64,000 bases of DNA from NCBI GenBank assembly GCA_963708295.1, contig CAVPSJ010000014.1:128001-192000 (forward strand), in the 5' to 3' direction. The translations under genes were made by a program, and so were the position numbers. The stretch is from an uncultured delta proteobacterium (lineage in GTDB: Bacteria; Desulfobacterota; BSN033; UBA1163). A model generated the notes under the pieces. It was not told where the DNA came from and searched no databases. It saw only the letters and a program-made list of their open reading frames with translations. Below, one piece after another: positions 9,778 to 38,046 of the stretch; positions within the stretch are counted from its first letter, which is position 1; every line of letters starts with the position of its first letter.

Positions 9778-10488
9778 TCAAACCGAATCTCTCCCCATCC
9801 TTTCTTGCTCTTCCAAGAACAGGGTTAATTGAACAAGGTTCCTAAAAATTAGTTCTGGCTGCTCGCTCTCGGAAATGTCTAAATGATCTTCTCTCACTAA
9901 TATCGCCACAGGAATTCCTCCTGCTTTCCTGGCGGCAATCACATCATCCTCGGTGTCACCCACGATGAGGCACTTTTCAATCGGTACGTTCATCCTTTTG
10001 GCACACTCAACAATGGCGTCCGGGGCCGGTTTCCGGCTCGCAACCTCCCTCGATGTTACGATGGAATCGATAAACCTTTCAAGACCAAACCCTTTGAACC
10101 TATCCCACTCCTTCTCCGGCATGGATGTCCTTCCGGTGGCAATTCCGATTTTTATGCCTCTCTCTTTGAGATTGCCAAAAAGTTCGTTGATTCCTGGAAA
10201 AGGCTTTACCTCGCTCGCTTCAATCTTCAGGAAATGCTGCAATATCTCTCTTTTACACCTTTCGATCAGCGATTCATCGGTTGGAAGAGGGAAGAGCTTC
10301 CGGAGCAAATCCTCCAAATTTGCACCTTTCCTGAGAGATTGAATGAGAAATTGTTGCGAGACAGGTTGGAGGTCGAATTGGCTTATTCCCCTGTTAAAGG
10401 CGAAGGTAAATACAGGGAAAGTGTCGACCAGGGTGCCGTCAATATCAAATATCACCCCCTGGATCTGTTTTCCATTTACAAGAAGCAT
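9778..10488 (-). CDS. HAD-family hydrolase (phosphoglycolate-phosphatase-like)
   Basis: FDIDGTLVDT, IATG, KPAPD, VGDTEDD motifs. Confidence 0.9.
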   Translation of the reverse strand: MLLVNGKQIQGVIFDIDGTLVDTFPVFTFAFNRGISQFDLQPVSQQFLIQSLRKGANLEDLLRKLFPLPTDESLIERCKREILQHFLKIEASEVKPFPGINELFGNLKERGIKIGIATGRTSMPEKEWDRFKGFGLERFIDSIVTSREVASRKPAPDAIVECAKRMNVPIEKCLIVGDTEDDVIAARKAGGIPVAILVREDHLDISESEQPELIFRNLVQLTLFLEEQERMGRDSV

Positions 10489-10719: not shown

Positions 10720-11544
10720 TCATTTTAGGATCCCCCCTCTTCTGAGGGCGTCTACCATCGTTGCTCCCAGCGCGTCAACCACTGCAGTTCCAGCGTCGAT
10801 CACGAGGGCAGCTCCTGTCATGAATGAGGAATCATCGCTTGCCAGGAAAGTGCAAATTCCGCCAATCTCGGGCGGTTGTCCGAACCGTTGAAGTGGCAAA
10901 ACCTTTGATATCATGGCAAAGAAACTGTCGGTTTCCATGCCGAGCATTTTCCCGAGCTGACCAAACTCCTTCTCCGTCATTTCCGTTTTGATGCCGCCAG
11001 GGCAGATGGCATTGCAACGGATATTGTGACGGCCGTAATCGAGTGCGGCCTGCTGGGTGAGCATGATGAGGCCTGCCTTAGAGCTGCAGTAGGCCGGAAA
11101 ACCAGACAGACAGCGGAGTCCACCCACAGAAGCAATATTGATGATGGATCCCCCGCCCCCTTTGATCATATGCGGTATGGATGCTTTCATGAGGAGAAAG
11201 GGGCCGGTCAGGTTCACGTCGAACACCCTCTGCCACTCCTCGCGGGAGAGATCTGCGACGGGCACCTGCGAGGCGATCCCGGCGTTATTGACGAGCACGT
11301 CGAGCCTGCCTCCAAAGGAGACTGTCGTCTTCACCATGCGCGCCACATCGTCGTCCTTTGAGACATCTCCCGGACAAGTGGTAACGGTCCCCGAGGGGAG
11401 TGATCGGGCCACCTCGTCAAGCATTTCTTTGCGGCGGCCGGTGAGACAAACCTTTGCTCCCTCGGTGACAAATCGCTTAACGATCGCAGTGCCTATGCCT
11501 GTACCTCCTCCAGTGATCAGTGCTACCTTTCCGTTCAGTTTCAT
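10720..11544 (-). CDS. Short-chain dehydrogenase/reductase
   Basis: TGGGTGIG, NNAG, YCSSK. Confidence 0.92.
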   Translation of the reverse strand: MKLNGKVALITGGGTGIGTAIVKRFVTEGAKVCLTGRRKEMLDEVARSLPSGTVTTCPGDVSKDDDVARMVKTTVSFGGRLDVLVNNAGIASQVPVADLSREEWQRVFDVNLTGPFLLMKASIPHMIKGGGGSIINIASVGGLRCLSGFPAYCSSKAGLIMLTQQAALDYGRHNIRCNAICPGGIKTEMTEKEFGQLGKMLGMETDSFFAMISKVLPLQRFGQPPEIGGICTFLASDDSSFMTGAALVIDAGTAVVDALGATMVDALRRGGILK

Positions 11545-11603: not shown

Positions 11604-12896
11604 TCAGATGGTCTCCGTCCCAAAATAGTACCTTGCAAGCTCGGTTAAGCGGAGAATCGGTCCGCCCACGACGATTTGACCAATCTTAAGGTCTCTGAGA
11701 AGCTTTTCTATTTTTCCTTCCCGTGAATAACCATAGGAACCCATGAGCTCGACGCAACGGCTTACGACATCCCACCCCAACTCACCGACCATATTCTGGA
11801 CGGCACTCGCTGCCGCGAGATTTTTCTCGTCCCATGGGAAACCGTAAACATCGGGGTGATCCATGCGTGCAGCAGCGTAATAGAAGAATCCCTCAGCAGC
11901 CAGAATATTTTTGGCAATCTGCCCCAATTCATGGACGATCGCTCCGTGCTCTTTCATCGGCTTCCCCGCTATCTCCCTGTTGTCTACATAGTCCTTGAGA
12001 ACTTCATAGGCCCTTTTCATGATACCAAGGGGAAAAGCGGCGGAAATAAGGCGGCCTATGGTGATGCTTGCGATGACGGATTTCACCTCGTCTTCAGGGT
12101 TTGGCTGAGCACGGTTCTCTTTCGGAACCCTCACGTTTTCAAACCATACGTCCCCGTTTGTATCGATGGCAGCCCCCATTTTCCGGTATGGCTTGCTCGT
12201 CGACACCCCGGGGGCATCGGCCGGCACAAATATTTGAGCGATGTTTCTTGGAAAATCTTGCCCCTCCACAGCACAAAGGACTCGGAACATCTTCGCTTCC
12301 CTGTAGCCAGACGGCCACAGCTTATGGCCGTTGATCACCCATTCGTTACCTTCTAACCGGGCCCTCGTTTTGATTTGGGTGCCTTTCAGTCTTACGTCTT
12401 CCACCGATCCTCCCGCATGCGGTTCAGTGATGGCACTCGCAATGATGTAGACTTTGTTGCCGCAGAGGAGGGGCGCGATCTTCTTGAGGAGGGTCTCATT
12501 AAGTTTCGGAATGGTTATTCCTGCAACGGCCCAGGAGCTTATGAAGCCTGTACTGGCAAGGGCGTAATCACCGCGGGCAACTTCTTCAATCGTAACACCC
12601 ATCTCAACGGTTGAGGCTCCCCCCGACCCACCAAACTCTGGCGGTATAAAAGATTTTTGTAGTCCGAGATCAATCAGCAGCCTTTTCCAGATATTGTCAA
12701 CGAAAGTATGCTCCTTTCGTTCCGTCCAATCCCAATAGTCGTCGAACTCCTCCGCGTGGGGCAGGACCTCATTGTCGATGAATTTCCTCAGGGTCTTGCA
12801 ATACATCTTGGTTTCTTCTGAGATGAGATGTTCGGGTCTTAAAAAATCATCAATTCCTTTAGATTTTTCACTAGCGAATTTTGTTCCGTCTGCCAT
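11604..12896 (-). CDS. Acyl-CoA dehydrogenase-family flavoprotein (atypical)
   Basis: IPPEFGGSG, ITEPHAGG, WVINGHKLW, KMG, FENVRVP, MGSYGYSRE..IEKLLRD. Confidence 0.9.
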   Translation of the reverse strand: MADGTKFASEKSKGIDDFLRPEHLISEETKMYCKTLRKFIDNEVLPHAEEFDDYWDWTERKEHTFVDNIWKRLLIDLGLQKSFIPPEFGGSGGASTVEMGVTIEEVARGDYALASTGFISSWAVAGITIPKLNETLLKKIAPLLCGNKVYIIASAITEPHAGGSVEDVRLKGTQIKTRARLEGNEWVINGHKLWPSGYREAKMFRVLCAVEGQDFPRNIAQIFVPADAPGVSTSKPYRKMGAAIDTNGDVWFENVRVPKENRAQPNPEDEVKSVIASITIGRLISAAFPLGIMKRAYEVLKDYVDNREIAGKPMKEHGAIVHELGQIAKNILAAEGFFYYAAARMDHPDVYGFPWDEKNLAAASAVQNMVGELGWDVVSRCVELMGSYGYSREGKIEKLLRDLKIGQIVVGGPILRLTELARYYFGTETI

Positions 12897-13280
12897 CTTT
12901 AATACCTCCTTTAGAAACTATTTTTTATTCGGGACAGGTTCTTGCGATGTCGAACCGTCCAGTGATGAACTTATTCCTTTTCAATCAACTTCGTACAGGC
13001 AGCTATCATGCCCTGAGGGGAACATTTCGAGTCTTAGATCGTCCATAGATGGTTAACTGACTCAACCAAAAATTAGCGCGATTGTCAAGAAGAAAAAATT
13101 CAAAACCCAAAAGTCGTTTATCCATTTAGCCCTTTTCAACAAACGCTACGAATACCCTCTTCCCTTTCTATATCCAAAGAGTCATGAGAGCTATTTGGGT
13201 CGGAGCACAGCGTGCTTAATGCCCATCCGTGATCTGCTGAATAAGAGGCAGAGATGTCTTTACCCTTCGGGATTGCAGCC

Positions 13281-13309
13281 TTGACAAGGGTGTCTTAGTA
13301 TGATACTAA
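13281..13309 (+). promoter_or_regulatory. Putative promoter with overlapping palindromic operator
   Basis: TTGACA at 13281 and perfect inverted repeat TTAGTAT-G-ATACTAA at 13295-13309; -10 spacing ambiguous. Confidence 0.45.
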
Positions 13310-13683
13310 ACTCGAAAATCAAAGAAAAGACTATTGAATCCCGGTCCAGGAGTGAGCAAAGATTAGTGCGGCGGGGTTCTTTGTTTCGATTTAATCCCTC
13401 CTTATTGCAGCTAGCAGCAGAAGTATCTGAAAGAAAAAAGCCAAGATCCTTGCTTAATGAATCGAATGAACGTCTCTAATTTCTTTGGTGGGTGGAAATT
13501 TCCTCTGTTGAAACTGCACAAGCATCGGTTACCGGGAGAATCACCTCGGTGGCATCCATGATCCACTTCGAAAGAGGCAGCAAAACGTTCAAAGATATCG
13601 CGATGAGGGCTTGCCAACACACCTAACGTCTTTCCAGAGGAGTTTTACTCAACTCTCAAAGGGATTGTTCTCGGAGGTGCATC

Positions 13684-14710
13684 ATGCCAGAGAGATATAT
13701 ATTTTGGATTGAGGAGTTGGGGCAAGAGCATTGTGAGATTGTTGGGAAAAAGTGCGGCAACTTAGGTGAGATGGCGAAGATCGGATTACTGGTGCCCCCG
13801 GGGTTTGCACTCTCTGTGGAGGCCTATAAGGATTTTATGATTCAAACGAATGCCAGGAGGGAAATACAGAACTATCTGTCCCAGTTGAGTGGGGAGATCG
13901 AAACCATAGAACAATTCAATCAAGCCAGCAGGGATATCCGTCAGATTGTAGAATCGAAAGAGATGCCTGAGGCGATGAAGGATACGATTCTATCCTTTTA
14001 TGATGGTTTATGCCGTAGATGCGATTGTATCGTTGCGGTTTCGACGAGGTCTGCTGGGCCCGTCAGCCATCCTGGACAATATGAGACTTATCTCAATGTT
14101 AAGGGTAAAGCAGACTTATTGGAAAAGATTAAGAAGGTTTGGGCAAGCTCATTTAATCCCCGTTCTTTAGCCTTTCGGAAACGAAAAGCACTGCCCCTGG
14201 AGAACGATCCGATCGGTGTGGCCGTCCTGAAGATGGTCAATGCTCGTGCTGCCGGAGTTCTCTTCACAGCGGATCCCAATACGGGCGATACTTCTCGGAT
14301 GATCATCGAGGCAAACTGGGGGTTCGGGGAGAGTGTGGTCAGTGGTGAGTTGATGCCGGATGTCTATGTTTTGAACAAAGACACTTTAGAGATACTCGAA
14401 AAAAAACTGGGAAAGAAGTCGAAATATGTGACCTGTAAAGAATTAGGAGTAGCAGAGGAAGAGTGTCCCTGCCGATTTGAGTGCGTCCTTTTGTTTAAGA
14501 GACGAGGAAACAAAAGAGATAGGGAAATTGGGCATTTTGTTGGAGAATCACTTCGGTGTCCCGCAGGATGTAGAGTGGGCGATAGAGCGGGATTTAGAAT
14601 TACCCAAGAGCATTATACTGCTGCAGACTCGTCCGGCAGTCATCGCGCAGAAAAAGAGTCCCGTGGACCAAGTGGTTGATTTAATGCTGAACCTGTATTC
14701 AAAGGGGTGA
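13684..14710 (+). CDS. Stand-alone PEP-synthase N-terminal (PPDK_N, ATP-grasp) protein, phenylphosphate synthase beta-subunit-like; 1-nt frameshift near 14464
   Basis: VGKKCGNLGEM, VPPGFA, STRSAG..SHPGQYETYLNV, AGVLFTADPNTG, NWGFGESVVSG; continues in the 14477 frame as HFGVPQDVEWAI...LLQTRP. Confidence 0.85.
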
Positions 14711-14805
14711 TCACCGAGGATCCGGATACCATCGAGAAGGTAAAGGCGATTTTAGGTCGTGAATCCATACTCAACCCATCTCTAATATTAGAAAGGAGGG
14801 CCAAT

Positions 14806-16485
14806 ATGTTGAGGCCAGCTTATGACTTAAGTTTTTATGAATTTGACGAGGAAAACGACCCCAAGAACTATGGCGTCCTTTTGTGCGACCTGGTCCACGG
14901 CAAACCTCCGATGAAACCCCTCTACATCGGAGTCGGTTGGTATTGGTATTACCATGGCGTCCGCTATGGGGCGGAAACACTCTTTTTAACCACGACTCAT
15001 GGCTGGGATTCCAGGTTTATCAAGGGCTATCCTTATATCACCGCAATCAGAACCACGGAAACAGAGGCCAAGGCGCGTGAACCGCTCTTCAGGGAGAAGA
15101 TCAAGCCCTTTATCGAGAACTTTGATGGCGTATGGAATCCACTCAAGACCGAATTGCTGGAAATATATAAAAGAGCCAAGAATTCAAGGGGCCTTAAGGA
15201 ATGGGGAGACATAAAAAAACTGAATAACCAAGATCTCCTCTCTTTCTTTTTGGATTTTGTCTATGTCATTAATCGAAAAGAGGCCGAAACCCACTTCGTC
15301 ATGTTCATGGCTTCTTATTACATCAGTGGTTTGTTTCAACAGATGTGGCGTGACCTATTCGGAACAGAAGCTCCCATTGATCCGAATTTCAGCAAATTGA
15401 TGGCAGGATATGAAAGTCAGGACCACAGGGTCGTCAGGGAGTTGTGGCGACTTGGAAGACGCGCTGTGGAACTGGGTTTAAGAGATGTATTCGAGAACAA
15501 TGAGGAAGAGAAAGTGATTAAAGAATTAGAAAAGAGCAAAGCAGGAGCCCAATGGCTGGGTGAATACAATGGATTCTTAGTGGAACATGGCTGGAGATGT
15601 GAACGGATGCATGCCTATGATACTCCAGCCTGGATTGAAAAGCCCAGTCTGGGTGTTCGAAGAGTCAAAATACTGATGACGAAGGAAGCCTTCCCTCTCG
15701 ATGCAGAGCATGATCGGGTCGTCGCAGAGAGAAATAAGACGGAGAAGGAAGTCTTGACGAAGGTGCCGGAAGCGCAAAGAGAAGCTTTTAGAATCTTGAT
15801 GGGAGCAGCCCAGAAATCTGGCTATTGGAGCGAAGACCATACGTATTATTGCGACTTCTACATCGGTTCCATGGGGAGGTGGATTGTCACTGAATTTGGA
15901 CGCCGATTTGCTGAGGCAGGATGTATTGATCATCCGGAAGATATCCATTTTTTGCATCCGAACGAGATAAGAAAGGCTGCCATCCCCATGGGAAGAATCA
16001 ACCTTCGTCCTTATGTGGAGCCAAGAAAGAAGGCCTGGGAAGAGAATCTTACCATAGATCCACCGCCTTTTTACGGAGACATCAGCCAAGCCCAGGCCGT
16101 GTTAAGGAGCGATCCTACCCTGGCGGTATCCACCCAACTTCCCATCGTGAGAGAAGAGCTGAAGGCAGATCTCTATGGGGCCGCTGCTGCCCCCGGGCTT
16201 GTAGAAGGTGTTGCGCGCGTGATTATGAGCGCAGACCAGTTATCGGAAATCAAAGCGGGTGAGATTTTAGTAGCCCCCGGAACCTCTGCTGCCTGGACGG
16301 TGGCCTTTAGCATTATCAAGGGCCTCGTCACAGATGGCGGGGGAGCCCTCTCTCACCCTGTGATCATGGCTCGTGAGTATGGGATCCCCTGTGTTGCCGG
16401 TTGTTTCGAAGGCACTGCGAAGATCAAGACCGGCCAGAGAATAAGGGTGGATGGGAACCTGGGAGTTGTCTATATCCTGAAATAG
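14806..16485 (+). CDS. PEP-utilising enzyme with C-terminal phospho-His swivel domain, phenylphosphate synthase alpha-subunit / rifampin-phosphotransferase-like
   Basis: GEILVAPGT..AW, VTDGGGALSHPVIMAREYGIPCV, GQRIRVDG; large helical N-terminal domain; AGGAGG RBS before ATG 14806. Confidence 0.85.
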   Translation: MLRPAYDLSFYEFDEENDPKNYGVLLCDLVHGKPPMKPLYIGVGWYWYYHGVRYGAETLFLTTTHGWDSRFIKGYPYITAIRTTETEAKAREPLFREKIKPFIENFDGVWNPLKTELLEIYKRAKNSRGLKEWGDIKKLNNQDLLSFFLDFVYVINRKEAETHFVMFMASYYISGLFQQMWRDLFGTEAPIDPNFSKLMAGYESQDHRVVRELWRLGRRAVELGLRDVFENNEEEKVIKELEKSKAGAQWLGEYNGFLVEHGWRCERMHAYDTPAWIEKPSLGVRRVKILMTKEAFPLDAEHDRVVAERNKTEKEVLTKVPEAQREAFRILMGAAQKSGYWSEDHTYYCDFYIGSMGRWIVTEFGRRFAEAGCIDHPEDIHFLHPNEIRKAAIPMGRINLRPYVEPRKKAWEENLTIDPPPFYGDISQAQAVLRSDPTLAVSTQLPIVREELKADLYGAAAAPGLVEGVARVIMSADQLSEIKAGEILVAPGTSAAWTVAFSIIKGLVTDGGGALSHPVIMAREYGIPCVAGCFEGTAKIKTGQRIRVDGNLGVVYILK

Positions 16486-16555
16486 GAAAAGGGGGGCCGG
16501 GGCGGACTGGGGTGTTCTCAAGACTTTGGAGAAAACTTAATTTCTGTTACAGCAA

Positions 16556-17830
16556 ATGACGAAAAACGAGGAGAGAAGGGTGCACAAAAAATGCATCGTC
16601 GTTATCGGCACCTTGGACACCAAGGGCGAAGAGATCGGCTATTTAAAGGAACTCATCCTTAAGCGAGGGCACCGACCTTTTATCGTTGACATCGGCGCTG
16701 GAGGAAAGGCAAGACTGGAGGCAGACATACCTGCTACCGAAGTGGCCCGGGCAGCAGGCACAGAGATAGAACAGCTATGGGATTCCCGTGAAAGACAGAA
16801 CGTTACCGAGGTGATGATTAAGGGAGCAGTAAGCAAACTGGCTGCTCTTTGCCGGACGGGAGAAGTAGAAGGGGTGATTTCCATCGGTGGCATGACCAGC
16901 ACGGTGATGGCCTCCAGTATCATGCGAGAGATCCCCTATAACATTCCCAAACTCATTGTCTCCAGCGCTGCCTCCATGCCAGGCTCCAATCGCTATTTTG
17001 GTCCTACGGGGATAACTATGATGCATTCCCTGGTTGATGTCGGTGGCCTGAATAGCTTGCTTAGAGCTCAGCTAAATAGGGCAGCCGGCGCCATCTGCGG
17101 CATGGTGAATGATGAGATTTCTCAGTCCGGTCTTGAAGAACACAAGCCAATGGTCGCCATGTCTGTCTATGGATATGTGGAAAATTGTGCGCGGTACATC
17201 AACGAAGCGTTGACAGGGAAATACGAGCTTATCCGCTTCCACGCCACGGGTATGCCTGAGATCACCATGGAGAAACTCATCGAGGAAGGCGTCTTCAGCG
17301 GCGTCATCGACTTAGTGCCCTCGAGTATCACGAATGAGAAATTTAATGGCGCACGAATCTCCTGGAAAAGAAGGTTGGAGGTGGCCGGGGAAAAGGGGAT
17401 TCCTCAGGTCATCGCCCCAGCCGGAGTGAATACCATTTCCCGGGTCGGATTTACCGCTGACGAATTAGCTCCTGAGCTCAAGGTACGTAAACATTATTTT
17501 ATGGAAGAACTACGGGTAACCGTGTGGTTGAATGCGAAGGAATTAGAGAATATGGCCTCGATCTACGCTGAGAAGCTCAATAAGGCTGTGGGGCCGACGA
17601 AATTCCTCATCCCCAAACGAGGGTGGATCTCTATTGAAAAAGAAGGGGGCGATTTCTATGACCCGCAAAACATTCAGGTCTTTGTTGATAAGCTTAAGGA
17701 GAAGCTGAAGGCAGAGATTGAAGTCAGAGAGGTGGACGCCAATATTGATGACCCGATTTTTGCAAAAGCAATCGTAAATGCTTTTGAGGAAGTCATGAGT
17801 TCGAAACAAGATAGAAAAGGTAGAGAGTGA
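16556..17830 (+). CDS. Tm-1-like ATP-binding domain protein (UPF0261)
   Basis: IGTLDTKGEE, PKLIVSS, SLVDVGGLN, FHATG, IPQVIAPAG, P.RG.S, NIDDP.FA. Confidence 0.88.
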   Translation: MTKNEERRVHKKCIVVIGTLDTKGEEIGYLKELILKRGHRPFIVDIGAGGKARLEADIPATEVARAAGTEIEQLWDSRERQNVTEVMIKGAVSKLAALCRTGEVEGVISIGGMTSTVMASSIMREIPYNIPKLIVSSAASMPGSNRYFGPTGITMMHSLVDVGGLNSLLRAQLNRAAGAICGMVNDEISQSGLEEHKPMVAMSVYGYVENCARYINEALTGKYELIRFHATGMPEITMEKLIEEGVFSGVIDLVPSSITNEKFNGARISWKRRLEVAGEKGIPQVIAPAGVNTISRVGFTADELAPELKVRKHYFMEELRVTVWLNAKELENMASIYAEKLNKAVGPTKFLIPKRGWISIEKEGGDFYDPQNIQVFVDKLKEKLKAEIEVREVDANIDDPIFAKAIVNAFEEVMSSKQDRKGRE

Positions 17831-17886
17831 AGGTCGTTCCCTTAACGGGCTTTTGCCACCTGCTGGGAAGGGGCAAAGGAGATTGA

Positions 17887-18546
17887 ATGCCAAAAGATAA
17901 ACGTGGGCCTTCACGAAAGATCTCTCTTCAGACCCCTGACGACATCCTGAAGCGCGACCTAGAAACTCTCAAGCAAGAGGCTTTCGAACTGGGTGCTTCC
18001 ATGGCCGAAATTATTCCCGCCGAGTGGGTGGAGATAGACGAGAGAGTGAGGCTCAAATGTTCCGTTCCTCTGTGCCCGTATTACGACAAAAACCCTTACT
18101 GCCCGCCTCGGGGGCCTTCCTCGGACTTGATGCGAGAAGCCATTCGTCGATACACTTGGGCCCTTCTATTCGCACTCGACGTCATCCCTCCCGAGGAATT
18201 TGCTGATCACTCCATAGAACGCGAAGCCGTCATCAAATGGGGGAAAAAATGCCTTGAAATCACAAGCAGGGTTGAGACGCTCGCATTCGGCAGGGGCTAC
18301 TATCTTGCAATGGGATTGGGGCAAGCGAGTTGCTTGAAAATACTTTGTGGTCAGGAACGGTGCCTTGTTCTTGGGGGGGGTAAGTGCCCTTACCCGCTCC
18401 AGTCCCGTCCCTCGATGGAAGGTTCGGGAATCGATGTCTTTCGGCTCGTGACGAAGGTCGGATGGGAGATATATCCGATTTACAGGAGTGTTGACCCAAA
18501 AGCAGTGCCAAGGGCTTTATCTGTGGGGATCGTCTTTATCTCTTGA
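17887..18546 (+). CDS. DUF2284 Cys-rich predicted metal-binding protein
   Basis: RVRLKC...CPYY..NPYCPP, further Cys cluster, RPSMEGSGIDV. Confidence 0.8.
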   Translation: MPKDKRGPSRKISLQTPDDILKRDLETLKQEAFELGASMAEIIPAEWVEIDERVRLKCSVPLCPYYDKNPYCPPRGPSSDLMREAIRRYTWALLFALDVIPPEEFADHSIEREAVIKWGKKCLEITSRVETLAFGRGYYLAMGLGQASCLKILCGQERCLVLGGGKCPYPLQSRPSMEGSGIDVFRLVTKVGWEIYPIYRSVDPKAVPRALSVGIVFIS

Positions 18547-18623
18547 GGTACCTTTCCTACCGGTTCTTGGCAGGGAAGAAACGGATGCCTTGACAGGCTA
18601 GATACCCCAGATCGGGCGTTTCA

Positions 18624-19334
18624 ATGATTGATCAGCAAAGCCACATGATAACAGTTCAGGCCGAGCCACAGCCGATCCTTGTAGATCTTGCAAGAACAGC
18701 TTTGCTCGTCGTGGATATGCAGAATGCTTTTGCACACCCAGGAGGTTATTTCGATCTGGTGGGCTTAGACATAACCCCCATACGACGAATTATTGAACCT
18801 TGCAGAAAGATCATCGACGCTGCCCATACCCAAGGCATCAGGATCATTTATCTCCAGATGGGATGCAGTTTAGATCTCTCCGACAAGGGATCGCCTGATT
18901 CACCGAGTTCGATCAAATCCCGGGTGTTGTCTATGATGAAGGAGCACCCTGAATGGAAAGACAAGTTTTACATCTATGGCACCTGGGGGGCGGAGATCAT
19001 CGAAGAGCTGAAGCCTCTTGAAGGGGATATCGTCGTTAGAAAGCAAAAGCACGATGGGTTCATTGGAACAAACCTGGACATCATTCTAAGAACCCTCGGG
19101 GCCAAATACCTGTTCTTTGTCGGAGCAGCCACGAACATATGTGTTGAATCGACACTTAGGCATGCTTTTTCGCTGGACTATTTTCCCGTTCTTGTATCCG
19201 ACGCCGTGAGCCCAATGGGGTCAAACATCACCCAAGATGCGACCATTCTCAATGTTCAGTCGACCTTTGGATGGGTGGCGAATGCTGAAGATCTATTACG
19301 TGCAATACGCTCTATCGAGAAAGAAAGGAGGTGA
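18624..19334 (+). CDS. Isochorismatase-family cysteine amidohydrolase, RutB (ureidoacrylate amidohydrolase)-like
   Basis: VVDMQNAF..PGGYFDLVG.D, K..HDGF..T.LD.ILR, ATNICVESTLR, FGWV; closely follows the RutB pattern. Confidence 0.85.
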   Translation: MIDQQSHMITVQAEPQPILVDLARTALLVVDMQNAFAHPGGYFDLVGLDITPIRRIIEPCRKIIDAAHTQGIRIIYLQMGCSLDLSDKGSPDSPSSIKSRVLSMMKEHPEWKDKFYIYGTWGAEIIEELKPLEGDIVVRKQKHDGFIGTNLDIILRTLGAKYLFFVGAATNICVESTLRHAFSLDYFPVLVSDAVSPMGSNITQDATILNVQSTFGWVANAEDLLRAIRSIEKERR

Positions 19335-19451
19335 TCTATACGCTCGGGTGGGGGAGGTGCCGAATACATCATCGGCATCGTTCGTTTGAAAAGAAAGGAT
19401 TGCCAAACAGGAGTTCTTAAAAGGTTTTATCCTCTCGAAAGGAGGGAAAAA

Positions 19452-20675
19452 ATGAATCGCACTTTGAAATATTTTAGATTTATAGCTTGTTTAGCTTTAC
19501 TGATGGTGTTCATTCTCCCGTGTGTTGGTTATCCTCAGGCAAAGGACAAAATCCGTATCGGTAATGCCATCGCTCTCTCAGGTCCTTATGTGGCCGGGGC
19601 GGTAATGACGCAGGTAAACCCCTATGACATGTGGGTCAAGGAGGTCAATGCGAAAGGTGGAATCTTTGTTAAGGAGTATAACAAAAAATTGCCCGTGGAG
19701 ATGATCAGGTACGACGATAAAAGTGACGTCGGAACCGCCGTGAAGCTGGTCGAAAAGCTGATCTTGGATGACAAGGTTGACCTTCTGCTGCCCCCTTGGA
19801 GTACGGGGATGAACTTTGCCATCGCCCCCATTATCACCAAATACGAATACCCTGTACTCGGGGTCACGGTTGACTCCATGAAGATTAAGGAAATAGCGCC
19901 CACCATCCCCTACTTTTTTGTACACCTGAACCAGCCTCCGGTAAAGGCGGAAGCCATCGTGCCGCTGTGCAAGGAATTGGGAGTCAAGACCGCCGTGGTG
20001 ATCCATCACTCGGATTTGCACGGCATAGAGTTTGCCGGCTATGTGGCACCCCAGTTAAGCGTCAATGGAATCGACGTCGTCATGTACAAGACCTATCCAA
20101 TGGGTGCCAAGGATCTTTCCCCGCTGCTGAAAAAGATTAAGGCCGCAAAACCCGATGCGTTTTTTGCATTCTCCTACCCTGATGAAACCTTCCTTCTTGC
20201 CGGACAGTCCAAGGCGATTGGATTTAATCCAAAGCTCTTTTACACCAGTATTGGCACGGCCTTCGCAGCCTATCGGGATGCCTTTGGTGCCAAAACGGTG
20301 GAGGGTGTAATGGGCACGGGCGCCTGGAACCCGAAAGTGCCTTATCCCGGAGCGAAGGAATTCTGGGACAGGATGGTCCAGTTTGCCGGCGCAGGAAAGG
20401 TTGACTGGTACGGGAACGCCTTCTGTTACTCCTCGATGCAGGTCCTGGAGCAGGCGATAGAGAAGGCCGGGACACTTGACAGAAAGAAGATAAGGGATGT
20501 CATTGCCACCAGCACATTTCAGACAGTCATCGGCCCGGTAAGATACGAGAATCAGATTAACGTTCAATCACCCGGCGAGGTAGGACAGTGGCAGAATGGG
20601 GCATTCGAAATCGTAGCGGCTAAAGAAAAGCGGACCGCAAAACCTATCTATCCTAAACCCCCATGGCCAAAGTAG
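19452..20675 (+). CDS. LIV-type ABC transporter substrate-binding protein
   Basis: Signal peptide, IRIG..LSGPY, VNAKGGI, YDDKSD, DKVDLLLPPW. Confidence 0.9.
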   Translation: MNRTLKYFRFIACLALLMVFILPCVGYPQAKDKIRIGNAIALSGPYVAGAVMTQVNPYDMWVKEVNAKGGIFVKEYNKKLPVEMIRYDDKSDVGTAVKLVEKLILDDKVDLLLPPWSTGMNFAIAPIITKYEYPVLGVTVDSMKIKEIAPTIPYFFVHLNQPPVKAEAIVPLCKELGVKTAVVIHHSDLHGIEFAGYVAPQLSVNGIDVVMYKTYPMGAKDLSPLLKKIKAAKPDAFFAFSYPDETFLLAGQSKAIGFNPKLFYTSIGTAFAAYRDAFGAKTVEGVMGTGAWNPKVPYPGAKEFWDRMVQFAGAGKVDWYGNAFCYSSMQVLEQAIEKAGTLDRKKIRDVIATSTFQTVIGPVRYENQINVQSPGEVGQWQNGAFEIVAAKEKRTAKPIYPKPPWPK

Positions 20676-20684
20676 ACATTCCCC

Positions 20685-20727
20685 AATCCCCCCGACCCCC
20701 TTTGCTAAAAGGGGCGAGGGGGGATTT
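20685..20727. repeat. REP-like hairpin related to family A
   Basis: AATCCCCCCGACCCCCTTTGCTAAAAGGGGCGAGGGGGGATT. Confidence 0.55.
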
Positions 20728-20790
20728 ATGAGATTGTGTCTCTCCGGGCAGCCTGCAAAGTTTAGTTCCTGAAGTGAGAAAGGTATTCCT

Positions 20791-21660
20791 GTGTTTTCAA
20801 CCATCTTAGATGTAGTCATTGGCGGCCTAATCATGGGGGGCATCTACGCCCTGATCGCCGTGGGGCTCGGCCTTCAGTATGGTGTTGGACGAGTACTGAA
20901 CGTCTCTCATGGCGAGTTCATTATGATCGGTGCCTTTGCCACTTGGTCGTTATACACATTATTGGGGATTAGCCCTTTGCTCTCTCTTGTCATTTGCGGT
21001 CCTGTTCTGTTCATTATCGGTTTTTTAATTCACAGAACTCTCTTTCAATATTTGAGAGATCAATCGGAATCGATAGGCGCTTTTGCGGATAGCTCCCTCT
21101 TAGCCTCCTTTGGTCTCCTCTTCATTATTCAGAATGTGGCATTATTAATATGGAAGGCTGACATAAGAGGGTACTCCTATTTGGATTCCTCAATAAGTAT
21201 TTTTGATGCCATATTTGCGGTCAATCGCTTAGTCGCCCTTTTGTTTGCTGTCGTCATCAGCTCGGTCTTCTATATCTTTCTAACACGTACACGCCTGGGA
21301 AAAGCGATTAGGGCCGCCGCGGAAGACCCCGTGACAGCCCAGGTGATGGGGGTAAACATTCATCGAGTGTTGGCGATCTGCTTTGGTCTGGGGGCGTTGA
21401 TGGCTGGTTTTGCAGGTCCTCTGATCAGCATGATCTACGAGATTCAACCAACGATGGGCCTCGAGTATACCATCATTGCCATTATCGTTGTCGTCCTGGG
21501 CGGATTAGGAAGTATCACCGGCAGTTTAATCGGCGGTTTTATTCTGGGACTTATCGGCAGCATCGTGACCTATTTCGACGCAGGTTTATCGTTGGTTGCC
21601 TACTATGTTATCTTTATACTGCTGCTCCTGATCAGGCCAACAGGTATTTTGGGAAAATAG
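20791..21660 (+). CDS. LIV-type ABC permease (LivH-like)
   Basis: GGIYALIAVGL, N.SHGEF, TRLGKAIRA, VVLGGLGS, RPTGILG. Confidence 0.92.
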   Translation: MFSTILDVVIGGLIMGGIYALIAVGLGLQYGVGRVLNVSHGEFIMIGAFATWSLYTLLGISPLLSLVICGPVLFIIGFLIHRTLFQYLRDQSESIGAFADSSLLASFGLLFIIQNVALLIWKADIRGYSYLDSSISIFDAIFAVNRLVALLFAVVISSVFYIFLTRTRLGKAIRAAAEDPVTAQVMGVNIHRVLAICFGLGALMAGFAGPLISMIYEIQPTMGLEYTIIAIIVVVLGGLGSITGSLIGGFILGLIGSIVTYFDAGLSLVAYYVIFILLLLIRPTGILGK

Positions 21661-21664
21661 AGAA

Positions 21665-22615
21665 ATGGACCGTATCCGAGTGACCACTCAAAGACTCTTT
21701 CCCTTTGGAACAATTTTCTTAATCCTCATCCTATTAGCAACTCTCCCTCTTTATGTCCAGCCTTATCTTGTGATATTACTGACCACCATCCTCATGTATG
21801 TCATCATTACGGTAAGCTGGACAATCTTCTCCGGACCTACCCGCTACATTTCTCTCGCATCCGCCGCCTTCTTCGGGGTCGGCGTATATACCTCGGCTTT
21901 ACTAGGGAAAGCATTCCCCCTGCCTGTTGTTATTGTTGCAGGCAGTCTATTCAGTTTCATACTTGCCCTTTGTATTGGCCTTCTAACCTTGAGGCTAAGA
22001 GGCATGTATTTCATCATATTCACTTTCTCGATCACTGAGCTCATGAGACACTTCCTCCTATGGTGGGAGACGACCATGACGGGTACGGTTGGCAGGTGGG
22101 TTGTCATCGTGGACCACACGGTTGTCTATTACGTCATGCTCGTCATTTTCGTCTTGGTGCTGCTTGCTGCTCACCTCATTAGACGCTCCAGATTCGGGTT
22201 AGCCTTGAGAAGTATCGGGGAACAAGAGGAGGCGGCAACTCACATCGGTATCAATGCAACTTTAGTGAAGACGATCACCTTTGCCATCAGCGCCTTCTTC
22301 ATGGGAGCGACGGGGGCGATCATGGCGACAAAATGGAAGTACATTGACCCAAGAATTGCCTTTGATCCCCTTCTTTCTTTTATGCCTGTTCTTATGGCAA
22401 TCTTCGGAGGTACGGGGCAACTTTTTGGTCCTGTCTTCGGAGCCGCCGTTTTTGCCTACTTAGAAGAAGTACTGACAACGAAGTTCCCCTACTATTATAT
22501 GCTCCTTTTCGGCAGTATCTTGATCGTCGTTATCTTGTTCCTGCCTCATGGTATGGTAGGGTTGGTGCAAAAGTGGCGGAAAGGGGGTTTGAAGCGGCAG
22601 AATGCAAATCCTTGA
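21665..22615 (+). CDS. LIV-type ABC permease (LivM-like)
   Basis: SL..AAFFGVGVY, LRLRG.YF, SRFGLALRSI, FGGTG..FGP, FLPHG. Confidence 0.92.
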   Translation: MDRIRVTTQRLFPFGTIFLILILLATLPLYVQPYLVILLTTILMYVIITVSWTIFSGPTRYISLASAAFFGVGVYTSALLGKAFPLPVVIVAGSLFSFILALCIGLLTLRLRGMYFIIFTFSITELMRHFLLWWETTMTGTVGRWVVIVDHTVVYYVMLVIFVLVLLAAHLIRRSRFGLALRSIGEQEEAATHIGINATLVKTITFAISAFFMGATGAIMATKWKYIDPRIAFDPLLSFMPVLMAIFGGTGQLFGPVFGAAVFAYLEEVLTTKFPYYYMLLFGSILIVVILFLPHGMVGLVQKWRKGGLKRQNANP

Positions 22616-23321
22616 AGGGAAAAATGTCACGAAACACTTTGGCGGGCTGGCCGCTGTGCATCAGGTTGACTTCGACATCCAGCAAGGGGAGGTCGTAGGA
22701 CTGATCGGTCCGAACGGGGCAGGTAAAACAACCCTTTTCAATTTGATCTCCGGCTCTCTCCCGACAACAGGAGGAGAAATAAGATATAAAGGTAAGAAAA
22801 TAACCGGGCTGAAACCCCATCAAATCTGCAAAAAGGGAGTAGCCAGAACTTTTCAATCCGCTAAACTCTTCTCCGGAATGAGCGTTTTTGAAAATGCACT
22901 CGGAGCCTCCTTGTTCGGGACGAAAAGGGCCATCTCTGTCCCCGATGCCAGGAGGGAAGCGGCGGAATTACTGGAGTTTGTCGAGCTGTCAACGGTGAGA
23001 GAGATGCTCGCCAAAGACCTGCCGATCGCTGATCGAAAGCGTCTTGAAGTTGCTCGAGCATTGGCTACGAAGCCAGATCTACTGATGTTCGACGAGGTGA
23101 TGGCGGGGTTGAACCCTACCGAGATCGCTCAGGCGATGGAGCTGATCACAGAGATTCGGAAAAAGGGGATAACCATTTTCATGATCGAACATGTGATGAA
23201 GGCCATTATGAACGTTTGCGATCGAATCATCGTGCTCCATCATGGCAGTAAGATTGCGGAAGGAACGCCTGGGGAGATTGCTACCAGCCGGACAGTTATT
23301 GAAGTATATTTAGGGGAATAA
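22602..23321 (+). CDS. LIV-type ABC ATPase (LivG-like)
   Basis: GPNGAGKTT, ARTFQ, DEVMAGLN, IEH. Confidence 0.93.
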   Translation: MQILEGKNVTKHFGGLAAVHQVDFDIQQGEVVGLIGPNGAGKTTLFNLISGSLPTTGGEIRYKGKKITGLKPHQICKKGVARTFQSAKLFSGMSVFENALGASLFGTKRAISVPDARREAAELLEFVELSTVREMLAKDLPIADRKRLEVARALATKPDLLMFDEVMAGLNPTEIAQAMELITEIRKKGITIFMIEHVMKAIMNVCDRIIVLHHGSKIAEGTPGEIATSRTVIEVYLGE

Positions 23322-23322
23322 G

Positions 23323-23419
23323 CCCCGTTAGAAAAGACGGGACATTGACTCTGCCCTTTCGATGAATCATTGAAGTGTTGGCGATATTATCCTTGTATGA
23401 GTGCAACTTTCTAACGGGG
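23323..23419. mobile_element. MITE-like element, family B (TIR CCCCGTTAGAAA...TTTCTAACGGGG)
   Basis: Perfect 12-bp terminal inverted repeat between livG and livF; related element at 51465-51661. Confidence 0.7.
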
Positions 23420-23426
23420 TAAACCC

Positions 23427-24131
23427 ATGCTGGCAGTCAACCATATCGATGCTTTCTATGGAAGGGTTCAGGCCCTATGGGATGTTACCTTAAGAATCAA
23501 TGAAGGAGAAATCGTTGCCTTGGTGGGCGCCAATGGAGCCGGCAAAACGACATTACTCAATATCATATTCAGGCTCCATCGCCCGGCTTCAGGAACGGTG
23601 GAGTTTCTGGGGAGGCGGATAGATGGCCTGGCACCTCACCACATTGGGGAGCTGGGTATCTCTTATGTTCCGGAAGGCGGCAGGCCCTTTAGGGAAATGA
23701 CCGTACGTGAGAATCTGGAAATGGGTGCTTATGTTTATGAAGCCTGGAAACAGAAGGAAGAGACGCTCAGCCAGGTTTATAATATGTTTCCAAGGTTGAA
23801 AGAAAGACAGAGACAGTTAGTCGGGACACTGAGTGGTGGCGAACTTCAAATGGTAGCCATCGGGCGAGGGTTAATGTCAAGACCAAAGCTGTGCGTTTTT
23901 GATGAACCCTCCTATGGCTTGGCACCCCTCTTGGTAAAAGAAATCTTTCGTATCGTACAGGGGCTTCACGAACGGGGGATTGCCATCTTGCTGATTGAGC
24001 AGAATGTCCGCCAGACCCTGGAGATAGCGGACAGGGCTTACGTGCTCGAAAATGGCCGGATCGTCTCAGAAGGGAAAAGTGGAGAGCTTCTGCAAGACGA
24101 TCACATCAAGAAGGCCTATCTAGGTTTATAA
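23427..24131 (+). CDS. LIV-type ABC ATPase (LivF-like)
   Basis: GANGAGKTT, VPEG, LSGGE.QM, DEPS.GLAP, IEQN. Confidence 0.93.
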   Translation: MLAVNHIDAFYGRVQALWDVTLRINEGEIVALVGANGAGKTTLLNIIFRLHRPASGTVEFLGRRIDGLAPHHIGELGISYVPEGGRPFREMTVRENLEMGAYVYEAWKQKEETLSQVYNMFPRLKERQRQLVGTLSGGELQMVAIGRGLMSRPKLCVFDEPSYGLAPLLVKEIFRIVQGLHERGIAILLIEQNVRQTLEIADRAYVLENGRIVSEGKSGELLQDDHIKKAYLGL

Positions 24132-24301
24132 TGGCAGGCCGGTTAAGAATTCCCCTGGGGGGACCATCATAGGCAACGGGTGTTTCTTCTCCAATCTGGC
24201 CAACCAGAAGAAATTCGAGAAGGCTCTATTCTTGTTGAAAAGGAGCTTTCAGCTGTCCTATCATTGAAGAAATTGCATCCAATGATGTTCGGTGAGGACA
24301 A

Positions 24302-25036
24302 TTGGAGATTTATAGGCTTCTTGAGGCAGAAGGGATAACAAAACATTTTGGGGGATTATCTGTCCTTCAGGATGTCACCCTAAACATCGATCAAGGGGAA
24401 ATTGTTGGGCTCATCGGGCCAAACGGAGCAGGGAAAACTACCCTTTTCAATGTCATCACCGGCATTTTCCGTCCGAATGAAGGCATGATTCGGTTCAATG
24501 GGAAAAATTTGGTGGGCCTAAAGCCCCACCAAATTTGTCGAAGAGGCATTGCCAGAACCTTCCAACTGGTAAGGGTCTTTCCCGATATGACCGCCATTGA
24601 AAACGTCCTTGTGGGAGCCATCTATGGCAAGGGTGGCATAAAGAAGAGGCCGATGGAAGAGGCCATCGAATGTTTGAAGATATTGGACCTTCTGGAGAAA
24701 AAGGATATCATCTCAGCACACCTGACCTACTCTGACCGAAGATTAGTGGAAATTGCAAGGGCCTTGGCTGCCAAGCCAAAGCTGGCCCTTCTCGATGAAC
24801 CCTTGGCAGGACTCAATCCGACAGAAACCTCTAAAATGGCGTCTTTGATTCAGGAGATACGGGCATCCAGGGGAATTTCCGTCTTATGGATCGAACATAA
24901 AATGGATGCCATCTTCAGCATCTGTGATCGGATTGTGGTTCTTGACTATGGCAAGAAAATTGCTGAAGGCGCCCCTGGAGAAATTGCAACCAACGAAAAG
25001 GTGGTGGAGGCATATCTTGGCGAACCCCCTCAATGA
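24302..25036 (+). CDS. Second LivG-like ABC ATPase
   Basis: GPNGAGKTT, GIARTFQ, LDEPLAGLN, IEH. Confidence 0.92.
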   Translation: MEIYRLLEAEGITKHFGGLSVLQDVTLNIDQGEIVGLIGPNGAGKTTLFNVITGIFRPNEGMIRFNGKNLVGLKPHQICRRGIARTFQLVRVFPDMTAIENVLVGAIYGKGGIKKRPMEEAIECLKILDLLEKKDIISAHLTYSDRRLVEIARALAAKPKLALLDEPLAGLNPTETSKMASLIQEIRASRGISVLWIEHKMDAIFSICDRIVVLDYGKKIAEGAPGEIATNEKVVEAYLGEPPQ

Positions 25037-25756
25037 AAGACATCTTGCTTAAAGTAACCAACCTGGAGGTCTTCTACGGAGATGCCCAGGCCCTATGGGA
25101 TATCAGTTTCTATGTGAATCAGGAAGAAATCTTTTCCATTATAGGAGCAAACAGTGCAGGAAAATCAACTATTCTGAAGATCCATTTCCGGATTGATTCC
25201 TCCTTCTTCCGGTCAAGGAGAGTTCCTTGGATCACGCATTGATGGGGCCGAACCCGATGCCATTGTGGATCTCGGCATATCTCTTGTGCCAAGAGGGAAG
25301 AGGTCTTTTCTCAAAACTTACCGTCTTGGAGAACCTTGAGTTAGGTGCATTTACCAAACGAGCACGGCCTTTTATGAAAGAATCTCTGAAATGGGTGATG
25401 GAGATGTTTCCAATTCTCAAAGAACGAAAGGGCCAGCTTGCTGGAAGGATGAGTGGAGGAGAGCAACAGATGATCGCCATTGGAAGGGCCTTGATGTCCA
25501 GACCAAGACTTCTCATGTTGGATGAACCTTCTCTCGGGCTGGCTCCTCTTGTTGTAAAGTTGATCTTCGAACTCATCCAAACACTCAATGACCAGAAGGT
25601 CACCATTTTGCTTGTGGAGCAAAATATTCATCAGGCCTTAAAAATCGCCCATCGTGCCTTGTCCTCAAGACAGGGAGGGTGACGATGACGGGCAAAGGAG
25701 AGGAACTCTTGACGGACCCTGAGATTCAGAAGGCCTATATGGGTACGCTGAAGTAA
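25033..25756 (+). CDS. Second LivF-like ABC ATPase, three apparent frameshifts (~25179, ~25291, ~25660)
   Basis: GANSAGKST, then SISGLIPPSSG...GISLVP in a second frame, then EGRGLF..MSGGEQQM..DEPSLGLAP, ending IQKAYMGTLK*. Confidence 0.85.
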
Positions 25757-32721: not shown

Positions 32722-32723
32722 AG

Positions 32724-32887
32724 TTCACCGCAGAGTCGCCGAGATCGCTGAGGATAAGATAAAAAGAGGATGATAGCTGGTATCTATCCAAGGCTTATTG
32801 TGAAAAGACAGAAGCCTTTTTATTTGGCGGCCTCTCACCGCCAAATAAAAACTGTTTCTCCGCGTTCTCTGCGCCTTTGCGGTGAAA
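32724..32887. repeat. Palindromic intergenic element TTCACCGCA...TGCGGTGAA with internal hairpin
   Basis: TTCACCGCAGAGTCGCCGAG...CTCTGCGCCTTTGCGGTGAA; inner TTTTATTTGGCGG...CCGCCAAATAAAA. Confidence 0.65.
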
Positions 32888-32903
32888 AACATTTTGGACA
32901 AGA

Positions 32904-36042: not shown

Positions 36043-36134
36043 CTCTTTCCAAGTCATATTTGATCATTCCATTAAGACGGTTGCACATACGAAAGGGTGT
36101 GCGATCTCTTGATCGAAGAAGAAGGAGGGTTGAA

Positions 36135-37995: not shown

Positions 37996-38046
37996 GGAAA
38001 CGAGACTGACGTCATTCCACAAAACAATTAAAGAAAGGAGTCGACT

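Follow-up and report, generated by a model that had tools for sequence, protein, structure and literature searches.

The locus studied here raises the question of which pathway is served by a split phosphoenolpyruvate (PEP)-synthase-like kinase whose two genes are directly followed by genes for a UPF0261 protein, a Cys-rich DUF2284 protein, a RutB-like hydrolase and a five-gene ATP-binding cassette (ABC) importer. These ten genes occupy positions 13684-24131 of a stretch of 64,000 nucleotides, called the window below, which comes from the genome of an uncultured delta proteobacterium (assembly GCA_963708295.1, here G000; 4.95 Mb in 20 contigs, the largest of 1.17 Mb, 91% complete) and corresponds to C14:128001-192000 (positions preceded by a contig number refer to the genome, the others to the window). 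An earlier note, made from the sequence alone, had read them as an undescribed pathway phosphorylating an imported small molecule. Our analysis points to a different answer: with a probability of about 0.6, the locus is a strict-anaerobe, divergent version of the phosphorylate-then-carboxylate catabolic route represented by the Hpe, Acv and Xcc systems. The cluster is not a new kind of system but most likely a divergent, unstudied variant of a known pathway, since a dikinase, a UPF0261 protein and a pyruvate carboxylase (PYC)-type biotin carboxylase together form the signature of this pathway type. The word "undescribed" thus does not hold: the conserved partner of the kinases is the biotin carboxylase, which makes the whole system a relative of the published ones (excerpts of PMC9618137).

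The window was annotated with Pfam and NCBIfam families, the scanned open reading frames (ORFs) being those at 1382-46626. The genes that carry the argument are the following.

13684-14710, plus strand: ATP-grasp (nucleotide-binding) subunit of a two-component dikinase (PPDK_N, E = 2.4e-64, within ORF 13684-14679)
ORF open from GTG 14707, likely 14806-16485, plus strand: substrate-binding and phospho-His swivel subunit of the dikinase (PEP-utilizers, 3e-21)
16556-17830, plus strand: UPF0261 protein (Tm-1/MarK family), putative ADP-forming small-molecule kinase (N- and C-terminal Pfam domains)
30970-32721, plus strand: carboxyltransferase (CT) fused to biotin carrier (BCCP), together CT-BCCP (HMGL-like, PYC_OADA and Biotin_lipoyl domains)
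32904-34392, plus strand: biotin carboxylase (BC; Pfam Biotin_carb_N and CPSase_L_D2; frameshift near 33950-34013)

All ten genes named by the earlier note (ATP-grasp, swivel, UPF0261, DUF2284, RutB-like and the five genes of a LIV-type ABC system) were found by Pfam at the positions that it gave. Its reading of the first two as a split dikinase of the PpsAB/rifampin phosphotransferase (RPH) type is supported by the PPDK_N and swivel domains and by homology to RPH, and the frameshift it hinted at is a one-base frameshift in the ATP-grasp gene of this assembly. The note had also stated that CBS, UbiD and PEP-hydrolase partners are absent. For UbiD and PEP hydrolase this stands, all genome-wide matches lying outside the window (UbiD at C14:67914 and C20:107417, PEP_hydrolase at C14:324827), and no CBS protein was present among the scanned ORFs, but the biotin carboxylase (30970-34392) and a CoA-transferase (34669-36042) had been overlooked.

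According to excerpts of the published work, 4-hydroxyacetophenone and acetovanillone are phosphorylated by HpeHI, a two-component dikinase, the biotin enzyme HpeCBA accepts the ketone for carboxylation only in its phosphorylated form, and HpeD, a HAD enzyme, then takes off the phosphate, all three having been established biochemically in 2022; XccBCA of the denitrifier Aromatoleum aromaticum EbN1 is homologous, and its genes are clustered with hpeHI homologues (PMC9618137). The first activity of a UPF0261 protein was reported in 2025 for MarK (Saro_1862) of Novosphingobium aromaticivorans, whose gene heads the marK-acvCDEF operon and which phosphorylates acetovanillone and related aromatics, converting ATP to ADP (excerpts of PMC12624787).

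Hpe of Rhodococcus rhodochrous GD02, Acv of Sphingobium sp. SYK-6 and Xcc of A. aromaticum EbN1 (anaerobic p-ethylphenol degradation) resemble the window locus in combining a two-component PEP-synthase/RPH-type dikinase (HpeHI/AcvAB) with a biotin carboxylase (HpeCBA/AcvCDE), to which the known systems add a phosphatase (HpeD/AcvF). Moreover, the window CT is a non-canonical PYC/OadA-like enzyme from the same clade as CTs of acv/hpe-like clusters, and a step activating a beta-keto acid would follow. Unlike in the known systems, the window swivel subunit, about 25-27% identical to the references, falls outside the PpsA/CreH/Hpe-like clade, CT and BCCP are fused, the CT has Glu at the Lys of KDMAG, loci of the window type have no conserved HAD phosphatase, and a CoA-transferase in the window takes the place of ligase and hydrolase. 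The window also adds a RutB-like hydrolase, an ABC importer and, in some related loci, DUF2284, and the hosts of clusters of this type belong to strict-anaerobe lineages.

One line of evidence for the Hpe/Acv/Xcc-type reading is the recurrence of the same partners. Nineteen related loci were drawn from species genomes, and further loci came from a survey of 401 sampled genomes of the window's phylum; co-occurrence was counted in the 16 loci, the window included, with a swivel subunit at least 65% identical to that of the window. The numbers of loci with each gene are as follows.

ATP-grasp gene: 13/16
UPF0261: 12/16
PYC-type CT: 12/16
BC: 8/16
CoA ligase: 8/16
thiolase: 5/16
isochorismatase-family gene: 10/16 (7 at no less than 48% identity to that of the window, 3 at 29-30%)
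LIV-type ABC importer: 5/16
DUF2284: 4/16
HAD phosphatase homologue: 1/16 (the window itself)
low-molecular-weight protein tyrosine phosphatase (LMW-PTP): 1/16
UbiD: 0/16

The separate PPDK_N gene is paired with the swivel gene in 13 of the 16 loci, the window among them, and recurrence of the gene association in other genomes, which the earlier note had proposed to check, is supported. Where partners are missing (L008, L009, L062), the contig is short or ends close to the swivel gene, the exception being L004. This contig, from a Syntrophorhabdales metagenome-assembled genome (MAG), has two swivel genes of the close family (77% and 74% identical), with no gene for ATP-grasp, UPF0261 or CT in their vicinity; the neighbours of one are molybdo-enzyme genes of the xanthine-dehydrogenase family, those of the other molybdo-enzyme genes of the DMSO-reductase family.

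The swivel relatives are 66-94% identical; the labels of their MAGs are Thermodesulfobacteriota, Chloroflexota, Dethiobacter, Bacillota and Syntrophus. In three genomes of one genus (L063-L065) the cluster is a contiguous same-strand operon in the order CT-BCCP, BC, UPF0261, ATP-grasp, swivel, CoA ligase, unassigned ORF, thiolase, LMW phosphatase (L063 only) and DUF2284. In the phylum survey, 28 of the 401 genomes have a swivel match at E <=1e-60 and only 7, including the host, have one of at least 66% identity, while the best match in a genome of the same genus is just 43% identical. This scarcity, together with the spread across phyla, suggests that the cluster has been distributed by horizontal transfer. 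In public sequencing data, contigs of four wetland or peat runs, each from another study, match the kinase genes at 90-100% identity; in no public run did the proportion of sampled words present reach one half, the highest value being 0.38.

Another line of evidence is the active site of the CT. In the window protein the canonical RDxHQS motif reads RDAQQS (His to Gln), FRxFD reads FWICD (Arg to Trp), and IKDMAG reads IEDASG (Lys to Glu). We take the three replaced residues to be those of the pyruvate site of pyruvate carboxylase; the Lys of KDMAG is carbamylated in pyruvate carboxylases. The canonical active site is preserved in the other PYC_OADA gene of the host (C8:233505) and in an annotated oadA, whereas His and Arg are absent from all kinase-linked CTs. 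In a quick maximum-likelihood (ML) tree with SH-aLRT support, all 18 kinase-linked CTs fall into a single clade (SH-aLRT 96), with OadA and the canonical paralog of the host outside it. Within this clade, the fused CT-BCCPs of the window, L001, L010, L011 and L063-65 form a group, while the unfused CTs of L002-L007 group with acv/hpe-like CTs (SH-aLRT 99).

Two further kinds of CT loci were observed. L077 (plasmid pNK84 of Caballeronia sp. NK8) has a CT/accB/accC set in 17 kb whose annotated features include no kinase gene, an annotated acetoacetate decarboxylase lies 5 kb upstream of the CT and a carbonic anhydrase gene 4.4 kb downstream; this CT, which branches as sister to the kinase-linked CTs as a whole, no longer has the canonical Arg. 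L024 (Rhodococcus oxybenzonivorans pRB98) and L025 (R. pyridinivorans pA) carry another kinase-linked carboxylase layout on plasmids: a short PEP-utilizing protein, a hypothetical protein, an AMP-ligase, a PPDK-annotated protein, BCCP, BC, CT, an OB-fold protein, a thiolase and a tyrosine-type phosphatase. Their CT has the Trp and Glu substitutions in common with the window CT.

The dikinase pair itself has the expected features. The swivel ORF (14707-16485) codes for 592 amino acids with the PEP-utilizers domain at the C-terminus (residues 516-586), and the sequence quoted by the earlier note, SHPVIMAREYGIP, was confirmed in its translation. The peptide TDGGGALSH fits the T/SxxGGxxxH motif that holds the catalytic His of HpeH (excerpts of a 2025 paper on HpeHI, PMC12167813). 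Residues 260-591 align with residues ~546-866 of RPH (E = 1.2e-24), the first 260 residues being unmatched. As the listed swivel relatives have 559-583 amino acids (mostly 559-560) and cover 94-96% of the ORF, the gene probably starts at ATG 14806.

Dikinases and CTs were compared with references from plasmid loci assigned by gene content: the ppsABC-ppcBDAG cluster of Azoarcus (L020), with the layout expected for a phenylphosphate system; two Rhodococcus cre-like clusters containing a P450 (L021, L022); and two Acv/Hpe-like loci, one of Rhizobium (L023: swivel, grasp, BCCP, BC, CT, HAD, acetoacetate-CoA ligase) and one of Rhodococcus (L028: kinase and CT). For comparison, HpeH, CreH and PpsA are ~45% identical to each other and ~20% identical to RPH, according to excerpts of PMC12167813. 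In a careful ML tree of swivel subunits, which carries a long-branch warning, in particular for the Thermomicrobium row, the PpsA, CreH-like and Acv/Hpe-like references and the second swivel of the host form one clade (100/99). Judged by sequence, the window pair is a member of the two-component dikinase family that lies outside the clade of characterised phenol kinases.

The second dikinase of the host (L026, C14:58000-77999, ~50-70 kb upstream of the window) consists of a 628-aa swivel and a 363-aa grasp subunit, and its cluster also includes two UPF0261 genes, UbiD, UbiX, a LysR regulator, two PaaK-type ligases and a TRAP transporter. Its swivel groups with PpsA (84/94, same tree), and the cluster is likely one for phenol-type phosphorylation and ring carboxylation; it couples UPF0261 to UbiD chemistry, not to biotin carboxylation. 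A sister swivel subfamily, 31-42% identical in tblastn, is found in L067-L073, L075 (L076 partial), L014 and L016. Its module, which is uncharacterised, comprises one or two FAD amine-oxidase/phytoene-desaturase-like genes, an SDR, swivel and grasp, often with an ARMT1-like phosphatase or an aldehyde:ferredoxin oxidoreductase (AFOR), and no carboxylase.

The UPF0261 protein matches the MarK structure 9MPY (E = 1.4e-42, 149 bits) about as closely as plant Tm-1 (134 bits). In excerpts of PMC12624787, the ATP-site motif of MarK is Asp14-Thr15-Lys16 and its acetovanillone pocket is made of Gly195, His219, His348, His304, Thr196, Phe283 and Ile285, where Gly195 and His219 bind the phenolic oxygen and His348 the ketone oxygen. 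LDTKGEE of the window protein aligns with QDTKEEE of 9MPY, so the DTK motif is kept, as are, in the HMMER alignment, the equivalents of Gly195 and His219. Thus the window protein resembles MarK in its two-domain family, in these residues and in having the same kind of carboxylase nearby; it differs in accompanying the dikinase instead of replacing it and in its pocket, where several residues, His348, His304, Thr196 and Phe283 among them, are replaced. Since the pocket is altered and MarK is about as distant as Tm-1, the window UPF0261 is, on sequence grounds, a family member with a different pocket and no MarK orthologue. The host has eight UPF0261 genes, three of them adjoining two-component dikinases; its only gene for a PEP-hydrolase TIM barrel is ~3 kb from one UPF0261 gene (C14:321-326 kb).

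If the locus is a version of the Hpe/Acv/Xcc route, the LIV-type ABC system would import the substrate, which the RutB-like cysteine hydrolase may first free from an amide or ureide form. Judging from homology and from the motifs present, phosphorylation could then follow two routes: through the two-component dikinase, with the phosphate passing from the ATP-grasp subunit to the phospho-His swivel and on to the substrate (ATP to AMP and Pi), or through the UPF0261 kinase (ATP to ADP). Synteny and the active-site changes suggest that BC charges the biotin of CT-BCCP and that the non-canonical CT puts CO2 on the carbon adjoining the carbonyl of the phosphorylated ketone. The phosphate would then be removed, and the beta-keto acid would be activated by a 3-oxoacid CoA-transferase (by CoA ligases in relatives) and undergo thiolytic cleavage. 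The most likely class of substrate is that of enolisable ketones, hydroxylated aryl ketones among them, derived from plants or peat; the substrate is probably not acetovanillone. No Rfam match was obtained at 9000-36000 with E up to 1, therefore there is no riboswitch clue to the ligand. A promoter and terminator consensus scan of 12800-24400 was uninformative, sites being rarer than in shuffles.

If this is true, the phosphorylate-then-carboxylate strategy, which has so far been characterised in lignin degraders that are aerobic, one denitrifier being known to have homologous genes, extends to strict anaerobes that live uncultured in wetlands, peat and sediments, where it may be a route for the anoxic breakdown of plant-derived ketones, and the poorly understood UPF0261 family gains a second physiological setting. 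The dikinase clade, the CT with its remodelled site (Arg replaced by Trp, Lys by Glu) and the RutB-like hydrolase recruited to the cluster would be targets in the search for new substrates and carboxylation biocatalysts. In a literature search, an anaerobe version of the cluster was not found beyond the Hpe/Acv/MarK papers, whose supplementary datasets may already list some; an anaerobic-benzene paper of 2026 (PMC13416013) is, in the excerpts seen, irrelevant to the cluster.

Several observations weigh against the Hpe/Acv/Xcc-type reading. The window swivel shares no more than 24.7-27.5% identity with the PpsA, CreH-like and Acv/Hpe-like references, and a branch of 1.63 substitutions per site parts its clade from theirs; because of this divergence, its substrate domain may bind something other than a phenol. 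The Acv/Hpe-like references (L023, L028) were themselves assigned by gene content only and are not the characterised HpeH, HpeB, AcvA or XccC proteins. In the UPF0261 protein, the MarK pocket is altered at five positions of the HMMER alignment (Thr196 to Tyr, Phe283 to Thr, Ile285 to Val, His304 to Met, His348 to Ile), although the alignment near 301-304 could move by a few residues. Neither BC nor BCCP was found beside the CT in L002, L005, L006 and L007, and no conserved phosphatase was found in the 16 loci. The published Hpe-type pathway has no role for the RutB-like hydrolase, and the surroundings of the window cluster look aliphatic, with a 3-oxoacid CoA-transferase, five SDRs and a 2-oxoacid/acetoin-type dehydrogenase complex. 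Finally, three genes within ~21 kb carry single-base frameshifts (grasp at 14467-14469, BC at ~33950-34013, CoA-transferase A at ~35000), so this copy may be defective.

A more far-reaching alternative keeps the kinases and the carboxylase together and changes the substrate. The deep-branching dikinase would have no phenol as its substrate; together with UPF0261 it would make an enol or lactim phosphate of a non-aromatic enolisable carbonyl, either an aliphatic ketone or a product freed by the RutB-like hydrolase from an imported amide or ureide, and the remodelled pyruvate-carboxylase-type enzyme would carboxylate it. We regard this as unlikely, if worth keeping in view: it would mean a previously unknown ATP-primed, biotin-dependent activation of small ketones or N-compounds in strict anaerobes, with a mechanism distinct both from hydantoinase-type acetone/acetophenone carboxylases and from the Hpe pathway.

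A separate doubt, which applies whatever the pathway, is that the frameshifts are real in all three genes and the copy is decaying and non-functional. In the grasp gene, the PPDK_N match ends at profile position 255 of 328 and the C-terminus continues in the +1 frame up to TGA 14708-14710, a stop codon that overlaps the GTG opening the following ORF; alignment with L011 places a single additional C in the CCC run at 14467-14469. The BC of L011 likewise aligns in two frames, to 32904-33998 and 33952-34380. These lesions point to long-read homopolymer errors or recent decay. Decay is consistent with the fragmentary second ABC set and with a 6.6-kb insert that interrupts the cluster relative to L001. 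Against it, a one-base error in a homopolymer run is typical of long-read assemblies, and the contig number and size of this genome fit such an assembly. Moreover, both public contigs that bridge the grasp lesion (2/2; runs X1 and X8, of the four runs, X3 and X5 having no coverage there) are without the extra base, though they represent ~92% identical relatives and not this strain, and the coding sequence on either side of the breaks is 80-87% identical to L011. We consider decay possible and rather doubtful.

Two rivals with another class of substrate draw on the genes between and beyond the core ones, among which the following matter first.

17887-18546, plus strand: DUF2284 Cys-rich protein (Pfam, 1.4e-29; 8 Cys in 219 aa)
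18624-19334, plus strand: RutB-like cysteine amidohydrolase of the isochorismatase family (Pfam; best NCBIfam match RutB)
19386-24131, plus strand: LIV/Urt-type ABC importer, with substrate-binding protein (SBP) 19386-20675, permeases 20791-21660 and 21665-22615, and ATPases 22602-23321 and 23427-24131 (Pfam, NCBIfam)
34669-36042, plus strand: 3-oxoacid CoA-transferase, with subunit B at 35380-36042 and subunit A split near 35000

DUF2284, the RutB-like gene and the importer are accessory rather than core, as follows from their low counts in the 16 loci. DUF2284 homologues 61-64% identical occur in the same cluster of the one other genus with the contiguous operon (L063-L065), and in L001 the gene is reduced to a 22-residue remnant. 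RutB-like genes are rare in the phylum (6 of the 401 sampled genomes at E <=1e-40), and copies at least 60% identical to that of the window were found only beside the dikinase. The RutB-like protein and the importer could serve together to feed in the substrate when it arrives in an amide- or ureide-type form. The second RutB-like gene of the host (C4:1127800-1130000; L079:6844-8975), 50% identical, adjoins another LIV-type ABC importer, which suggests that hydrolase and importer form a recurring module independent of the kinases; orthology of the two modules of the host was rejected, their SBPs being just 27% identical.

The CoA-transferase fits a beta-keto acid as the product. Its subunit B is well assigned (TIGR02428, 280 bits, above the cut-off of 243.55), while the putative subunit A is recognised only by its position and by two adjacent ORFs (34669-34995 and 35033-35383).

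According to the first of these rivals, the substrate is an aliphatic methyl ketone or secondary alcohol of the acetone, butanone or acetoin type, converted by the dikinase to an enol phosphate, carboxylated to a 3-oxoacid and passed to the CoA-transferase. The position of the CoA-transferase directly after BC would suit it, as would the five SDRs, the AFOR and the 2-oxoacid/acetoin-type dehydrogenase nearby, the placement of the swivel outside the phenol-type kinase clade, and the acetoacetate decarboxylase and carbonic anhydrase genes near the closest kinase-free CT, that of the Caballeronia plasmid. However, all characterised members of both kinase families act on phenolic hydroxyls (excerpts of PMC12167813 and PMC12624787). 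PaaK-type aryl-CoA ligases are present in L002, L005 and L006, the UPF0261 protein keeps the residues of MarK that bind the phenolic oxygen, and up to three ATP equivalents per carboxylation would be a heavy cost for strict anaerobes. We judge an aliphatic substrate to be quite unlikely.

Similarly improbable is that an imported N-heterocycle, lactam or ureide, the substrate types suggested by the earlier note, is phosphorylated and then opened or hydrolysed by the RutB-like amidase, with the carboxylase uninvolved. The RutB-like protein is indeed close to E. coli RutB, the ureidoacrylate amidohydrolase of the Rut pathway (8bkd, E = 5.5e-55), sharing its isochorismatase fold and the equivalents of its Asp24/Lys133/Cys166 triad (VVDMQN, K and ATNICVEST), and its gene directly adjoins the kinase genes in L005, L007, L010 and L011. 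Among solved structures the SBP is closest to urea-binding proteins, though weakly so (E = 4e-17), the top-scoring models of permease and SBP are of the urea type, far under their cut-offs, and the other RutB-like gene of the host is paired with a LIV importer as well. However, the protein scores 222.5 bits with the RutB equivalog TIGR03614, under its cut-off of 377.95, it differs at the positions of Tyr29, Asn72, Trp74 and Tyr136, which are presumably substrate-binding residues of RutB, and no further rut-type gene or operon context occurs among the scanned ORFs. Moreover, L003, L006 and L063-L065 have the dikinase, UPF0261 and CT but neither an importer nor a RutB-like gene of at least 48% identity, and this explanation leaves the conserved non-canonical CT unexplained.

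It is very improbable that the neighbours are coincidental, CT-BCCP and BC being a normal two-subunit pyruvate carboxylase and the kinases unrelated to them. The enzyme does share with two-subunit pyruvate carboxylase and OadA the HMGL-like TIM barrel, PYC_OADA and BCCP domains and the separate BC; among solved structures it is closest to a pyruvate carboxylase beta subunit (E = 4.9e-89), it scores 455.6 with NCBIfam NF006761, "pyruvate carboxylase subunit B" (cut-off 402), and it starts 6.8 kb past the kinase and ABC genes. However, NF006761 is a domain-type model whose score is raised by the fused BCCP, the RDxHQS His, FRxFD Arg and KDMAG Lys are replaced while the other copy of the host is canonical, and the enzyme is separate from the ordinary ones in the tree. 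The synteny holds in 12/16 loci across phyla, contiguous operons included, and the 6.8-kb gap is due to an insertion missing in L001, the closest relative (94% swivel identity), where CT-BCCP and BC come directly after the last ABC gene.

The weakest rival, an ordinary phenylphosphate synthase of anaerobic phenol degradation, is hardly credible: the two-gene PpsAB-like architecture (a split ATP-grasp and swivel dikinase in an anaerobe, as in PpsABC with the UbiD-type phenylphosphate carboxylase of Thauera/Aromatoleum/Azoarcus) and the UbiD-type carboxylases of the host speak for it, but, as the earlier note had supposed, the pair is not a bona fide member of that system, the swivel being 26% identical to PpsA of the Azoarcus cluster and outside its clade, UbiD standing beside the pair in none of the 16 loci, a CBS subunit being absent from the scanned ORFs, and the other pair of the host (C14:58-78 kb), which lies beside UbiD, UbiX and aryl-CoA ligases, being the one that groups with PpsA.

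The remaining features of the neighbourhood have a looser relation to the cluster.

9778-10488, minus strand: HAD-IA hydrolase, a possible pathway phosphatase (Pfam HAD_2, 3.3e-34), not conserved
10720-11544, minus strand: SDR oxidoreductase, divergent from the kinase operon (adh_short_C2), in the same place in L001 with 96% identity
11604-12896, minus strand: acyl-CoA dehydrogenase (four ACAD Pfam domains), 76% identical in L001
24302-30881, plus strand: inserted segment of 6.6 kb, absent from L001, with a second, fragmentary LIV-type ABC set and two SDR genes
36060-39921, plus strand: two SDR genes and AFOR (Pfam), possible downstream steps with weak association

In the inserted segment, the ATPase, permease and SBP ORFs (25227-25682, 27857-28591 and 29043-29924) match parts of the Pfam profiles only, and the SDR at 30117-30881 shares 43-47% identity with the SDRs that accompany dikinases of the sister subfamily. 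The AFOR gene lies at 38047-39921, and an AFOR gene is also found beside the cluster in L005. Further downstream, at 40220-45655, there are genes for E1 alpha, E1 beta, E2 and E3 of a 2-oxoacid (pyruvate/acetoin-type) dehydrogenase complex, followed by a gene for lipoate-protein ligase.

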